A stretch of 64,000 nt of DNA, taken from a phage. Under the pieces are notes generated by a model, which was not told where the DNA came from, ran no database searches, and saw nothing but the letters and a program-made list of their open reading frames with translations. The DNA lies in the NCBI GenBank assembly GCA_017864995.1, contig GCA_017864995.1_4097.1; one strand, given 5' to 3'. A program made the position numbers and the translations under genes. Below are positions 633 through 46,680 of the stretch, in pieces (the stretch's first letter is position 1; each line of letters begins with the position of its first letter).

Positions 633-1025
633 ATGACTGAATCAGAACTACACGAAATGATAGATTTCATTTATGAAATGGTGCAAGATAAAAATAACAT
701 TAATACAATTACTACTGGACCAAGACAAATTGGTAACCAAATGACATATTCGTTGTCCTTATGGTTACACCCGAACTTCAAGGTTGATTGTTTGTATTTT
801 CGTCCTGATATTGATGCTTATTATTTTGTAAATCATGATGCATTAATGAAACCAAATAAGCGTCCAGTTGATGATGCCTTTGTGACGCACCCATTTTATC
901 TGGCTGATTCCGAAGAAGATGAGTTTCAAAAGAACACAACGTTAAGCCCAGGTGAAATTTGCATCCCTTACACACTAAAAGATAAAATGATTTACATCAC
1001 AGAAGTTATGAAAACATGCTGGTAA
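633..1025 (+). CDS. hypothetical protein, member of EE-x-FQ-x-S motif family
   Basis: ORF track; C-proximal motif SEEDEFQKNTTL shared with 10 other ORFs in the window. Confidence 0.6.
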   Translation: MTESELHEMIDFIYEMVQDKNNINTITTGPRQIGNQMTYSLSLWLHPNFKVDCLYFRPDIDAYYFVNHDALMKPNKRPVDDAFVTHPFYLADSEEDEFQKNTTLSPGEICIPYTLKDKMIYITEVMKTCW

Positions 1026-1073
1026 GTGCAATGAAACTCTGATATAATACAAATAATGATAATAGGAGGATAT

Positions 1074-1292
1074 ATGAAATTTATTAATTTTGATATTTCT
1101 AAGGTCAAAGAATTATTTGTAAGAAATGCAGTTTATGATATCATGTTACATAACGGTACTGTACAAGAAGATGTTGTATTGTTTTCGTTTGATGGTGAAA
1201 ATCTCGAAACTATATATAAATTCAGCAACTTAGATGGTGACTTTTGGGAAACCAGTGCTGTTAAAATGTATAGAATTAAAAAGGAGCATTAA
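1074..1292 (+). CDS. hypothetical protein
   Basis: ORF track frame; start moved to ATG 1074, 4 nt after AGGAGG. Confidence 0.5.
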   Translation: MKFINFDISKVKELFVRNAVYDIMLHNGTVQEDVVLFSFDGENLETIYKFSNLDGDFWETSAVKMYRIKKEH

Positions 1293-1293
1293 T

Positions 1294-1782
1294 ATGCCAA
1301 TTCGTGGTGTACCAGAACCATTAATGGAAGTTATTAAGCATGTTCGCATTGGAGATCGAGAAGTTAATCTTCGCCGTAATAACATTTTTTACTTTAAAAC
1401 TTCAGAAATGAGTTCTGTACAGATTGTCATTGGTACATCTATTAAGATTACTCGTGTACTTGATGGTAGTACTGACTTCGTTGAATATAATGTACTTACT
1501 AATAAAGTAACGCATATATATAAATGGAGTGGGTATAAAACTATTAAGTATGAATTTGACTTAGCTAGAACTGAAGAAGAACGATTTATGCTGAGTACTA
1601 TCAATCCAGCAAACTATCCTGACCTTGATGCATTTTTGCTAATTTTAAAATTGTATAATGAAGCAAATCAGAAAGCCAAAGATTATGATAGAATCATGTA
1701 TGAACGCCGAAAAGAACGTGCACAAAAAAGTTATGATCTGTATGATAGCCCATACGTGAAATATAGTAAGGGGTCGAAATGA
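1294..1782 (+). CDS. hypothetical protein, EE-x-F motif family member
   Basis: ORF track frame; start at ATG 1294 after AAAGGAG; motif TEEERFMLSTI. Confidence 0.55.
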   Translation: MPIRGVPEPLMEVIKHVRIGDREVNLRRNNIFYFKTSEMSSVQIVIGTSIKITRVLDGSTDFVEYNVLTNKVTHIYKWSGYKTIKYEFDLARTEEERFMLSTINPANYPDLDAFLLILKLYNEANQKAKDYDRIMYERRKERAQKSYDLYDSPYVKYSKGSK

Positions 1783-2183
1783 ATAAAGAAGTTCAAATTA
1801 TCATAACTCCACCTATACAAAGTCTGGATGTATCCATTAGTGATTTTTTGGAAAAATACTATGAATGGTTTAATGAAGATTCAGTAATTTATAACCATTC
1901 ATTACCTGATGGTTTCGTTGAGCTTATTGAATTAAATGCAAAATCACTATACTTCTGTGTTGAATACAATGATTATATGACAGATGAAGCATATCGTTTT
2001 CGTTGTACATTGTATCCTAACCATTTTTCCATTGGTTATAAAGACTATCAGTACTGCACCACAAACTATAGTGTAGAGGAAGAATTTCAGTACAATTTAC
2101 TTTATCCTGATTTAGATTATACGATTGCAGTACTGTTGACTAAAATCATGGATTTTTATAAAGATAAATATAATGCAGCCTAA
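1779..2183 (+). CDS. hypothetical protein, EE-x-FQ motif family member
   Basis: ATGA start/stop overlap with upstream gene; motif VEEEFQYNLL. Confidence 0.55.
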   Translation: MNKEVQIIITPPIQSLDVSISDFLEKYYEWFNEDSVIYNHSLPDGFVELIELNAKSLYFCVEYNDYMTDEAYRFRCTLYPNHFSIGYKDYQYCTTNYSVEEEFQYNLLYPDLDYTIAVLLTKIMDFYKDKYNAA

Positions 2184-2358
2184 GACATTTGATGAGTGGT
2201 TTAATCTACACTATAATATAAATGCAGCAGATATATACTATTTTAAGCTTGAATTGTATATATCATTGCGTAACCCAATTGAGTACTATAACAACATTAT
2301 CAATTGTGATGATTTTGGTACATATTTTAGTATAGCAGTCATGGACAAAATAAGATGA
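2173..2358 (+). CDS. hypothetical protein (61 aa)
   Basis: ORF track; overlaps neighbours by a few nt. Confidence 0.4.
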   Translation: MQPKTFDEWFNLHYNINAADIYYFKLELYISLRNPIEYYNNIINCDDFGTYFSIAVMDKIR

Positions 2359-44418: not shown

Positions 44419-44790
44419 ATGAGTTATCGTGAAATATTTTCAATCATTACTATTATTGTGTTTAGTTTAGGTTCTTTGATTTGGTTATTGTATTACTTCT
44501 GTGTAACCCCAGTATATAATATGCTAAATTCAGTAAAATCTGACGTTGGTATTGTTTCTTTTATTATCTTCATGGCATATTATATGCTAAGTATCACAGG
44601 TTTGGTTTTGGTTGTTATCTTTGACCTTGGGCCGAATCAAGATGGTATGGAGATGTGGGAATTGATAACGATGTTTGCATGTATGATACCTGCATTTGGT
44701 GTATGTGCTGGTGTATTTTATGGGTTGTGTAAAGGTGTAAACTACTTAAAAAATATCCACAATACTATTCGTAAAAAACGTATGTTGTAA
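44419..44790 (+). CDS. small polytopic membrane protein, same family, copy 10
   Basis: C-terminus NTIRKKRML. Confidence 0.5.
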   Translation: MSYREIFSIITIIVFSLGSLIWLLYYFCVTPVYNMLNSVKSDVGIVSFIIFMAYYMLSITGLVLVVIFDLGPNQDGMEMWELITMFACMIPAFGVCAGVFYGLCKGVNYLKNIHNTIRKKRML

Positions 44791-44797
44791 TAAAAAA

Positions 44798-44822
44798 ATC
44801 CAGTACTATAATAGTACTGGAT
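44798..44822. terminator. bidirectional terminator at strand-switch point
   Basis: hairpin ATCCAGTACT-ATAAT-AGTACTGGAT between convergent genes, A-run upstream and T-rich downstream. Confidence 0.65.
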
Positions 44823-44827
44823 TAATT

Positions 44828-45952
44828 TTAATTATCTAAGCCACCAATTACACTGAACAGTGTGGTAACGTCTGAACTATTATCTATGTAAGTTCTTCTA
44901 CCAACATAATATAGTTGTCCTTTTGCTTGAATAAAAGTTACGGTCCCTGTATTGAATGTTATAATATCATTGTATGTAATGTCAGGTGGTAGTGCTGCTG
45001 ATAACGCAGTAACTTTACTTAATGCAGCACTAGTACTACCATTTATACCAGCAGCAATACTACCAGTACCATAGAACTTATTATCTTTACCAATGAATAC
45101 GTTGGCTGATGCTTGTGTAGCTGATGTTATTGCCTTACCAATTTGGAATGCGGTTCCTATGGTGTATGGTGTGCTCCTGGCTGCGTCTATGCTTTGTGTA
45201 TATCCATCCCCTAGCTGACCATTAACTTTGTCACCACATGAGTATAAAGTACCATTGAGGCTGTATATGATCCCACGGTTAGAGAAGCTAACAGCTTCTG
45301 CATTAGTCCATACTGGAGCGGTGTATGAGTTTACACGACTAGCAGTAGTTCCTAGTCCTAGTATACCATATGTGTTATCACCACATCCAAACCATTGTCC
45401 AGTACTGTTTTGATAGAACACTGAACGTTCTGTTGATTCCATGCGTACAGCATCCACAGCACCACTTTTAACGAACGAAGTGGATGAGGATGTAGTACCA
45501 GTACCCAATGCACCATAAGTGTTTGTACCAATCGCATAGATTGATCCTAGTGGTGTCATCACACGTATACAGTTATATCCCAATTGAACTTTACATTCAA
45601 ATAGGTTGTCCCATATTTCAGGAACAGCAGAAAATAAATTTGTAATTTCGAACCATGATGTTGTCGAACCAGTTAATCCTATACTGCTTTTGTTTCCTAA
45701 AATGAAAACAGTTTTGTCCTTCTTAATTATCCATGATGATAGGAAACCTATCTCACAGCTATGAACATTTGATTCTATTTGGGTAATATAATACTTAACT
45801 GTGTTATCACCCATGAATGCCGCAGCACCGGATGCAAAAAGGTTTCCAGTTTGTTTATTTAAAATGTAGTTATTGTTTCCATATACACTAACATCATAAG
45901 AACTTTCTTGTTTTTCGTTCCCATAATCAAATAACAATACGAAAGGTAACAT
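44828..45952 (-). CDS. RCC1-like repeat (beta-propeller) protein, MLPF family paralogue 1
   Basis: N-terminus MLPFVLLFDYGN; motifs LYSCGDKVNGQLGDGYT, VYGWGRNVNGELGQG; own SD AAGGAGAT. Confidence 0.65.
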   Translation of the reverse strand: MLPFVLLFDYGNEKQESSYDVSVYGNNNYILNKQTGNLFASGAAAFMGDNTVKYYITQIESNVHSCEIGFLSSWIIKKDKTVFILGNKSSIGLTGSTTSWFEITNLFSAVPEIWDNLFECKVQLGYNCIRVMTPLGSIYAIGTNTYGALGTGTTSSSTSFVKSGAVDAVRMESTERSVFYQNSTGQWFGCGDNTYGILGLGTTASRVNSYTAPVWTNAEAVSFSNRGIIYSLNGTLYSCGDKVNGQLGDGYTQSIDAARSTPYTIGTAFQIGKAITSATQASANVFIGKDNKFYGTGSIAAGINGSTSAALSKVTALSAALPPDITYNDIITFNTGTVTFIQAKGQLYYVGRRTYIDNSSDVTTLFSVIGGLDN

Positions 45953-46029
45953 GATAAAATCTCCTTGTGTTATACTTTATTTAATCATTTTATAATGTAC
46001 AATTTTACAGCGATTTAATTGAGGTACTC

Positions 46030-46680
46030 ATGAATAAAAGAAGTAAGTTCTATCAAGAATATTTCACTAAACAGAAACGATTCACAAAAAAATACTTTAC
46101 ATCACCCCACCGACCAGTTGCAAGTTACAAACGTCCTAATACTAACTATCTTACTGGTGGCAAGTTTAGTGCAAAGTTCGAATTACTTATGCGTGAAAAG
46201 AATATCAAGATGCATTACGCAGAGACGAGAAAAAACTCATCAATTATTTGCTCTGATTTTCTTGAGTACGGTTGCTTAACTTATAAATTCAATGATGTAT
46301 ATTTGTATATTGATGTTGATTGTAACAGTACTCGTATGTTTGAGATTTCAATTCACCCAAATCACAACCGTTATATAAACATTAACTTGATTGATAAAGT
46401 ACTGATTGGTATATCTAGTACTGATGGTGGTGGATTTGAATTTATTGCTTCAAAATATGATGAAGATTTCGTACTTTACCCAGTACTTGATGATGTGAAA
46501 GATATACTCAATTCATTAAAAGGAAGTCAATACAAATTATCTGAAGAACAGCTATTTCAGTACTCACTTATTCATGATGATATCGAGATATACTTAGAGT
46601 GTGCGAGAATCTTGGAGTATCTTTATAATGAATTAACAACAACTGGTAAAGTGACTGCATTCACATTATATAATATGTAA
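46030..46680 (+). CDS. hypothetical protein, EE-x-FQ motif family member (inserted in minus-strand array)
   Basis: only + strand gene inside the array; motif SEEQLFQYSLIHDD; followed by bidirectional hairpin. Confidence 0.55.
   Translation: MNKRSKFYQEYFTKQKRFTKKYFTSPHRPVASYKRPNTNYLTGGKFSAKFELLMREKNIKMHYAETRKNSSIICSDFLEYGCLTYKFNDVYLYIDVDCNSTRMFEISIHPNHNRYININLIDKVLIGISSTDGGGFEFIASKYDEDFVLYPVLDDVKDILNSLKGSQYKLSEEQLFQYSLIHDDIEIYLECARILEYLYNELTTTGKVTAFTLYNM

Follow-up and report, generated by a model that had tools for sequence, protein, structure and literature searches.

The window analysed here is a stretch of 64,000 nucleotides of phage DNA (contig GCA_017864995.1_4097.1 of NCBI GenBank assembly GCA_017864995.1). 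Megablast placed it in the genus Asteriusvirus, jumbo coliphages of ~350 kb, with 97-99% identity to EC.P1, Ecwhy_1, fEgEco12 and TH47 and ~88% identity to slurp01, phAPEC6 and G17; nearly all genes under these matches are annotated as 'hypothetical protein'. Small genes on the plus strand occupy the window from 0 to 46.7 kb, and a minus-strand array of 14 RCC1-like paralogues extends from 44.8 kb on. A preliminary description, made from the sequence alone, had singled out eleven of the small open reading frames (ORFs) as a dispersed family sharing an acidic motif, [TS]EE-x-FQ-x-S, near the C-terminus. We show below that these ORFs, together with a twelfth, belong to a large family of paralogues (Table 1), and we discuss what its members may do during infection.

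The motif marks a family of true paralogues

All eleven ORFs lie on the plus strand, each with exactly the motif string that had been quoted. The distance of 25-40 residues between motif and C-terminus given in the preliminary description was slightly short, since nine members have 34-46 residues there, 24271 has 55 and 1294-1782 has 50 (70 if measured on the longer ORF that starts at 1234). The motif occurred far above its shuffled frequency: a pattern written as in that description matched 11 times, against 0.00 expected from 300 within-protein shuffles, and a looser pattern, E[ED]x0-2F[QM]x[SNC], matched 12 times, against 0.16 in the shuffles. Among 159 ORFs in the other reading frames of the window, the motif patterns had no match. 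A chance origin of the shared motif is excluded.

Pairwise BLAST among the eleven ORFs yielded a single clear pair, 7751/8160 (E 4e-10), the other matches being weak, short and centred on the motif; with only this pair significant, pairwise comparison was insufficient on its own. Profile hidden Markov models (HMMs) were more informative. In a leave-one-out design run against 129 window genes, each member was recovered with E values of 1e-3 to 2e-8, a test that is partly circular because the members had been picked by their motif. Other tests are free of this circularity. Profiles derived from the window found new members in other phage genomes: new ORFs of Ecwhy_1 outside the region of the window (E down to 1.6e-8), 16-17 ORFs in 40 kb of Erwinia phage Hallingskeid, 10-11 ORFs in 8 kb of phage UB, 100 kb from the window's region, and 10 ORFs in 20 kb of Klebsiella phage K64-1. 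In the opposite direction, a profile built only from 17 Hallingskeid paralogues was run against 348 six-frame ORFs, and its ten best matches were ten of the twelve window members (E 8e-11 to 1.4e-3); the outliers were the most divergent members, 1779 (E 0.08) and 633 (E 1.7). With the converged profile, all twelve window members scored at E <= 8e-10 and all other ORFs at E >= 0.6.

Comparison of profiles gave the same picture. Subfamilies from Escherichia, Klebsiella and Erwinia phages aligned across genera in hhalign with probabilities of up to 97.6% over 28-80 columns, several cross-genus pairs reaching 92-97.6% over 40-80 columns. These subfamily profiles supersede an hhalign comparison of shallow orthologue profiles (7751, 8160, 4414 and 633), in which at most 17 columns were aligned and no match was significant. 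Full-length BLAST links connect several subfamilies, also across clusters, and word-indexed homologue searches returned near orthologues from Asteriusvirus contigs only. Moreover, in most of 59 diverse members, ~90-113 residues separate the invariant phenylalanine of the motif from the N-terminus and 28-46 separate it from the C-terminus; this constancy from both ends indicates that the motif occupies a set position within a domain of ~135 residues. We conclude, with near certainty, that the eleven ORFs are true paralogues of one family and no chance carriers of a motif. The statement that there are eleven paralogues in 46 kb was therefore right as to paralogy and too low as to number, given the twelfth member in the window and the ~59 copies in a close relative.

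A sharp signature followed by a second conserved box

Residue frequencies were taken from 103 sequences of less than 70% identity from several genera. They define the family signature [ST]-E-E-x-x-F-Q-x-S-[TL]-[VI]-x-D, whose first half reads [T48/S25%]-E89%-[E76/D16%]-x-[Y/F/L]-F99%-[Q89/M10%]-x and whose second half reads S87%-[T49/L44%]-[V47/I33/L16%]-x-[D62/N13/E11%]. Three to four residues past the motif follows a second box, h-[T/S]-[Y/L/F]-[E/D]-x-h-x-x-h-x-x-h. Conservation thus extends well beyond a five-residue core, over ~30 contiguous positions that include a second N-capped helix. On helical-wheel reasoning, the variable positions of the motif (x at +3, +4, +7 and +11) would fall on one face of a helix, within a 100-degree arc, and the conserved positions would take up the remainder of the wheel.

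The preliminary description had not recognised the motif from any named domain, and database searches bear this out. None of the 10 window members scanned against Pfam matched at E <= 1, the 59 members found in phage TH47 gave 15 different, single, insignificant Pfam matches that point to no family, and no sequence relative of the family was found in the PDB. In PHROGs, the 59 TH47 members are scattered over 45 groups, all of unknown function; paralogues and orthologues are held in groups 17453, 24941, 12674, 13866, 9317 and ~40 others. That these groups form one large family with a common motif is not evident from this classification.

The signature is predicted to form part of the core of a compact fold

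The structure of 7751-8167 was predicted with AlphaFold2 from an alignment of 90 orthologues and paralogues. The model has a predicted local distance difference test score (pLDDT) of 89 and a predicted template-modelling score (pTM) of 0.84, and consists of a helix at 5-15, six main strands within 19-91, a short helix at 92-95 and two helices at 98-107 and 115-125. The motif coincides with T97, as N-cap, and helix 98-107, a block modelled at pLDDT 95-97, and T97, E98, E99, F102 and Q103 are invariant among the 90 relatives. The [ST]-x-x-E capping box is a classic structural signal of helix starts. T97 directly precedes helix 98-107, as T114 does helix 115-125; by standard helix rules, both conserved boxes can thus be read as S/T-x-x-E capping boxes. 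The predicted fold, a small alpha+beta domain, starts with an N-terminal helix, which is followed by an antiparallel beta-meander of six to seven strands and by two C-terminal helices; the signature would supply the capping box and the body of the first C-terminal helix, and the box h-[ST]-[YFL]-[ED] would open the second.

A second AlphaFold2 run was made on 9737-10144, with the 7751/8160 sequences deliberately excluded from the alignment. This model shows strands followed by a helix at 97-106, which contains the motif, and a helix at 113-128, the same order of elements as in 7751-8167; with a pLDDT of 53 (~80 over the C-terminal helices), its confidence is low and the agreement lends weak support. 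Foldseek searches of BFVD with the 7751-8167 model returned uncharacterised proteins of RaK2, PBECO4, CBB and relatives, and the 9737-10144 model gave weak BFVD matches, three of whose targets were common to both models; the overlapping sets comprise RaK2, CBB and GAP32 proteins.

The idea that the motif is a common interaction peptide, as first worded, is not supported by the modelling: the region is predicted as an N-cap and a regular first C-terminal helix within a compact domain, and no free peptide. Taken together, the helix within a compact domain, its fixed position and the conserved second helix suggest that the motif is a signature of the fold core and no linear docking motif, though the helix may also carry a conserved binding surface.

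The family is expanded throughout the RaK2-like jumbo phages

The full extent of the expansion was assessed in TH47, a close relative with a complete, unannotated genome of 352,450 bp. Among its 1527 six-frame ORFs, the family profile found 47 on the first pass (E <= 1e-3) and, once converged, 59, every one of which has the motif and lies on the same strand. Family genes thus make up 59 of ~530 genes (~11%, or roughly one in nine) and occupy 7.7% of the genome. Besides three clusters (Table 1), TH47 has seven isolated copies, three of which correspond to 24271, 30185 and 46030 of the window.

A 38-residue consensus of the family, searched with tblastn at E <= 10, matched 72 of 50,697 phage records. 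Among the matches listed, all are records of RaK2-like phages or fragments of such records, mostly genomes of ~350 kb; not one of the other 50,625 phage records matched, even at E <= 10. The listed phages are those of Escherichia and Salmonella, Klebsiella phages RaK2, K64-1 and Muenster, Cronobacter phage GAP32, Pectobacterium phage CBB, Yersinia phage fHe-Yen9-04, Serratia phage BF, several Erwinia phages and Xanthomonas phages XbC2 and XaC1. When 1.84 billion representative proteins were scanned exhaustively with HMMER, only 34 clusters matched, of which 13 were the window members' own and ~20 were new, all with the motif; the ten new clusters that were looked up are unnamed proteins of metagenome assemblies. 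The remaining cluster is spurious: its representative, the top match P0106 (3305 aa), was rejected because it is made of PPIFQSSVVH repeats. The consensus search and the HMMER result together argue that the family is clade-specific; as far as these sequence searches reach, it is confined to the ~350-kb RaK2-like jumbo phages that infect enterobacteria and Xanthomonas. Its expansion is common to the whole of this clade.

Individual subfamilies are kept as orthologues in three phage genera, and no frameshifted or pseudogenised family copies were seen across strains. At the same time, slurp01 has ten members where the window carries nine, and positions 18637-19140 of Ecwhy_1 encode a member of 167 residues (ITDEDVHFQESLV) without a detectable counterpart in the window, which points to gain or loss of paralogues between strains that are ~98% identical. 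Many duplications took place before the Escherichia, Klebsiella and Erwinia phage genera diverged, and strains still differ in copy number. The family grew by tandem duplication. In the window, 8160-8519 is a tandem paralogue of 7751-8167 (BLAST E 4e-10), which it overlaps by 8 nt.

The family genes are conserved and lie in a region with sigma-70 promoters

In nine members, the ratio of non-synonymous to synonymous substitution rates (dN/dS), calculated against slurp01, ranged from 0.03 to 0.52, with a median of ~0.23; most neighbouring genes fall between ~0.06 and 0.47, about 0.16 being typical. The members are real genes under purifying selection. Two start codons given in the preliminary description, 1294 and 9737, were preferred over the mechanically assigned 1234 and 9695 on the basis of a full-length PHROG match and of orthologue lengths of 162 and 135 aa, respectively. 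The start of the twelfth member, 9248-9664, was set by its 138-aa orthologue P0107.

The proteins, each a single small domain of ~120-190 aa by prediction, are mostly acidic. The 59 TH47 members have a median isoelectric point (pI) of 4.69, with 44 (75%) below 5.5 and eight basic; among the other proteins of 100-240 residues, 47% have a pI below 5.5 (Fisher p 1e-4). A transmembrane-like segment is absent from all 12 window members, and 2 of the 59 TH47 members exceeded the hydropathy threshold.

Table 1. Members of the family in the window, perfect sigma-70 promoters among them, and the family clusters of phage TH47. dN/dS was calculated against slurp01.
Feature	Coordinates	Strand	Length or content	Motif	dN/dS	Remarks
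Member	633-1025	plus	130 aa	SEEDEFQKNTT	0.18	most divergent in the window; family HMM E 3.6e-12; own PHROG 32367 (unknown function); Hallingskeid-only profile E 1.7, not retrieved
Member	1294-1782	plus	162 aa (182 aa from alternative start 1234)	TEEERFMLSTI	0.12	basic C-terminal extension, pI 9.4; PHROG 22160 matches 162/162; full-length K64-1 relative (subfamily 4)
Member	1779-2183	plus	134 aa	VEEEFQYNLL	0.03	one residue fewer before F; weak with Hallingskeid-only profile, E 0.08
Member	4414-4779	plus	121 aa	TEEEYFQTSTV	0.52	nine orthologues, 62-97% identity; 11/12 sigma-70 consensus site at 4355-4382, directly upstream
Member	5478-5849	plus	123 aa	AEDEFQKSTV	0.23	
Member	7751-8167	plus	138 aa	TEEKFFQYCLV		confident AlphaFold2 model
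Member	8160-8519	plus	119 aa	TEESLFQYSMI		top Hallingskeid-only profile match, E 8e-11
Twelfth member	9248-9664	plus	138 aa	LTEDMYMQLNFV (variant)		HMM E 4e-14; Hallingskeid-only profile E 1.3e-4; upstream, 11/12 sigma-70 site at 9168-9197 and terminator-like hairpin at 9199-9225
Member	9737-10144	plus	135 aa (alternative start 9695)	TEEEHFMDSTV		10/12 sigma-70 site at 9676-9704, directly upstream
Member	24271-24786	plus	171 aa	TEESVFQQSLI		isolated; TH47 orthologue at 141813-142328
Member	30185-30757	plus	190 aa	NEEEYFQESIV		isolated; TH47 orthologue at 135840-136412; basic, pI 9.3; N-terminal extension
Member	46030-46680	plus	216 aa	SEEQLFQYSLI		isolated; N-terminal extension; between two minus-strand RCC1-like genes, both matching Pfam RCC1/WD40_RLD
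Perfect 12/12 sigma-70 promoter	2836-2863	plus	TTGACA, 16-17 nt spacer, TATAAT			
Perfect 12/12 sigma-70 promoter	2980-3008	plus	TTGACA, 16-17 nt spacer, TATAAT			
Perfect 12/12 sigma-70 promoter	7262-7289	plus	TTGACA, 16-17 nt spacer, TATAAT			
TH47 cluster	54.8-81.4 kb		~33 copies			
TH47 cluster	156.8-168.7 kb					corresponds to window 0.6-10.2 kb
TH47 cluster	173-181.7 kb					just past the left edge of the window

The preliminary description had also remarked on the look of an early region, and the promoters agree with it. Between 1 and 12 kb of the window, three perfect (12/12) and seven 11/12 sigma-70 consensus sites were found, all on the plus strand, and consensus sites (one of them 10/12) stand directly upstream of members 4414, 9248 and 9737; the number of perfect matches in 12 kb is far above chance. 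According to the CBB paper (PMC5259590), the equivalent region of that phage, with short hypothetical genes, RpoD-like promoters and a phage sigma factor, belongs to a presumed early class. In the window, a phage protein of the sigma-70 family (Pfam Sigma70_r2 and Sigma70_r3) is encoded at 18673-19638, in the middle of the small-gene region.

When genes were mapped by gene order and mass, no family member appeared to be among the 62 virion proteins of phAPEC6, a set in which products of neighbouring genes, gp077 (window 12741-13898) and gp078c (window 11881-12696), and RCC1 proteins were detected. The cluster upstream of the window region in Ecwhy_1 encloses a gene for a DNA C5-methyltransferase, and just past that cluster lies the gene of a protein called NADAR by Iyer et al. 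2021 (PMC7824862).

Other features of the window

The RCC1-like array spans 44828-63965 on the minus strand and comprises 14 paralogues of 264-462 aa and one fragment; phAPEC6 orthologues of these proteins are virion-associated 'DNA condensation proteins'. As had been noted before, one member of the family, 46030-46680, sits within this array, and its minus-strand neighbours on both sides match Pfam RCC1 families. The array resembles the family in being a large paralogous expansion in the same genomes, and differs from it in encoding unrelated beta-propellers of ~375-460 aa on the opposite strand, which are virion proteins in phAPEC6.

Six tRNA genes (Ser-tga, Ser-gct, Met-cat, Asn-gtt and two adjacent Thr-tgt) lie between family members at 3662-7734, and relatives carry other tRNA sets at the same sites, such as Gly and Arg in slurp01. 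A second small family, of 54-56 aa with the start MTH(E/K)EW(M/L), is found at 2355-2525, 3859-4023, 4020-4184 and 4181-4345; three copies are in direct tandem, and BLAST joins three, the fourth having been assigned by eye only. All-against-all BLAST (E < 1e-4) revealed further paralogue groups, a trio at 35531-36566 and the pairs 26797-27192/27583-27933 and 31326-31709/32557-34068. Two further products are unannotated in relatives: one of 256 aa (41513-42283) matches AAA/STAND-NTPases weakly, and one of 484 aa (39989-41443) has a sub-threshold CapR-homology match. Finally, synonymous divergence from slurp01 over window positions 73-12000 jumps from 0.0 to 1.9 between adjacent orthologous genes, indicating that this part is a recombination mosaic and no uniformly diverged block.

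What the family may do

We propose that the members of this clade-specific family of diverged paralogues are early-expressed, diversified host-interacting proteins that combine a conserved helical core with a variable sheet, a reading to which we give an even chance of being right. The family genes would be transcribed early by the host sigma-70 RNA polymerase, and the proteins would work within the infected cell as host-takeover or counter-defence binders, each paralogue with a target of its own. The C-terminal helical pair would form the invariant core of the fold and possibly a conserved surface too, and the beta-sheet and its loops, which lack detectable sequence similarity, would bear the paralogue-specific binding. 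Host takeover or counter-defence by binding would be the most likely function.

Several observations weigh against this proposal. The dN/dS values are ordinary, with no sign of positive selection at the resolution that slurp01 offers. Early timing is deduced from promoter consensus and from literature on a related phage, and the notion of a binder with a variable sheet derives entirely from the pattern of sequence conservation. A profile of the N-terminal two-thirds alone gave no significant signal (8 of the 12 members were among its top 30 matches, enrichment p ~1e-3), so that homology over the whole length cannot be claimed from sequence; a common fold is likely for the family, and is firmly modelled in one member, the second model being of low confidence. 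In addition, the near-invariant Q, S and EE exceed what a purely structural helix usually needs, which leaves room for a possible shared ligand or partner.

This last point leads to the reading in which the motif is a common docking element for one shared host hub or phage partner, and the variable parts bring different cargo or targets, the proteins acting as adaptors. In its favour, F, Q, S and EE are conserved at 87-99% over the 103 sequences, above the level of the surrounding helix, and the N-terminal parts are free to diverge; with the variable positions on one helix face, the conserved residues would form a continuous stripe, a candidate surface. The motif is, however, modelled as a regular helix with pLDDT >90 in a compact domain, and not as a disordered segment, both helices start with capping boxes, the position of the motif in the domain is fixed, and no candidate partner is known. 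We consider such adaptors unlikely. A bolder reading is possible, if doubtful: about one gene in nine of every RaK2-like jumbo phage would encode this domain, which we call the 'TEE-FQ-S' domain, and the paralogues would make up a modular arsenal. The C-terminal helical pair would then either be the core of the fold or serve in docking or oligomerisation, and a hypervariable sheet would set each host target; the targets could be defence systems, or nucleoid or other basic proteins.

Among PDB entries, those that the 7751-8167 model matched best in fold were proteins of the p32/gC1qBP/MAM33 family (PF02330; PDB 7te3, 3qv0, 3jv1 and 1yqf). On a p32-like reading, the phage proteins would form acidic homo- or mixed trimers, with the C-terminal helices as oligomer interface, and would mimic or sequester basic host proteins that bind nucleic acids, for example nucleoid proteins, restriction enzymes or other DNA-targeting defences. 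The predicted order of elements agrees (N-terminal helix, antiparallel beta-sheet, two C-terminal helices), and the proteins are likewise small and mostly acidic (75%, median pI 4.7). By contrast, no member matches the Pfam MAM33 profile, either among the 10 window members or among the 59 TH47 members at E <= 0.1, and 8 of the 59 are basic. To our knowledge, the [ST]EExxFQxS helix signature is not a known feature of MAM33, and a trimer is purely hypothetical for the phage proteins. We judge p32-like sinks to be quite improbable, and do not file the family as a member of MAM33.

Two further readings have very little in their favour. The site of tobacco etch virus (TEV) protease is ENLYFQ/S, and the subset of motifs of the form EEEYFQxS comes close to this consensus (ExxYxQ/S), which would suggest a proteolytic processing or targeting signal on processed or packaged cargo, for example internal virion proteins. 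In jumbo phages, processed inner-body proteins that form paralogous families do exist. The phage phAPEC6 is described in PMC7247149 as having an inner body. Nevertheless, the motif is helical in both models (98-107 and 97-106) and part of the fold, Y occupies P3 in only ~28% of sequences, the residue after Q is variable (Q/Y/L/E) and the conserved S comes two residues after Q; the predicted helix and these residue frequencies led us to reject a TEV-like cleavage site, and the resemblance is probably coincidental, since the segment is helical. The phAPEC6 virion proteome table, with no member apparent among its 62 proteins, led us to reject a virion or internal-protein role, and the promoters that precede the genes are of sigma-70 type and not late. 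Processing is thus highly improbable as a whole. As a practical caveat, TEV-like motifs such as those of 4414-4779 (TEEEYFQTS) and 30185-30757 (NEEEYFQES) call for care when the proteins are purified with TEV-cleavable tags. It is just as hard to believe that the copies are selfish or neutral duplications devoid of individual function, or that an AT-rich genome gave rise to the motif by chance or through its base composition. The large family, the strain-variable copy number and the lack of a known function would fit; the motif was found 0 times in shuffles and in no other reading frame, the listed matches of the consensus peptide are all RaK2-like records, dN/dS is <1 in every member tested, and subfamily orthologues persist across Escherichia, Klebsiella and Erwinia phages.

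Relation to known expansions and significance

Lineage-specific expansions in giant phages were already known; what is new is this domain, its unity, its motif and its size. The family was undescribed in the literature that we found. Iyer et al. 2021 (PMC7824862), who took Ecwhy_1 proteins as examples in their survey of jumbo phages, do not mention the family in the main text; the main text of the CBB paper (PMC5259590) mentions 22 paralogous ORFs without describing it. A close precedent comes from Bacillus phage G, whose genome holds a Zn-ribbon family of ~35 copies (Iyer et al. 2021, PMC7824862), likewise a small domain amplified to tens of copies whose function is guessed; our family differs from it in fold and clade, in its ~59 copies and in its presence in several genera instead of one phage.

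A broader comparison can be drawn with eukaryotic DNA viruses. The multigene families MGF110, MGF360 and MGF505 of African swine fever virus (ASFV) and the host-range families of poxviruses consist of tens of diverged paralogues in tandem clusters, with copy-number variation and a presumed anti-host role. By analogy, the phage family resembles them in its tandem clusters of paralogues, its copy-number variation between strains and its apparent combination of a conserved module with variable parts. It differs in having a bacterial host and no relation in sequence or fold, and a role in host range would here be suggested by analogy. If the modular arsenal were true, the family would be a phage counterpart of these ASFV and poxvirus families and a possible determinant of broad host range.

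RaK2-like jumbo phages (RaK2, K64-1, 121Q/PBECO4, GAP32, CBB and others) are under development for therapy, and over 80% of their genes still lack an assigned function. With the present analysis, ~59 'hypothetical proteins' per genome become one tractable family with a sharp signature, and the 38-residue consensus provides a simple marker of the phage clade, with none of the matches listed from 50,697 records lying outside it. The ~60 natural variants per phage offer a panel for target screening. Should they prove to be a diversified host-interacting or counter-defence set, they could partly explain the large size of these genomes and would provide a wealth of new inhibitors of bacterial proteins.

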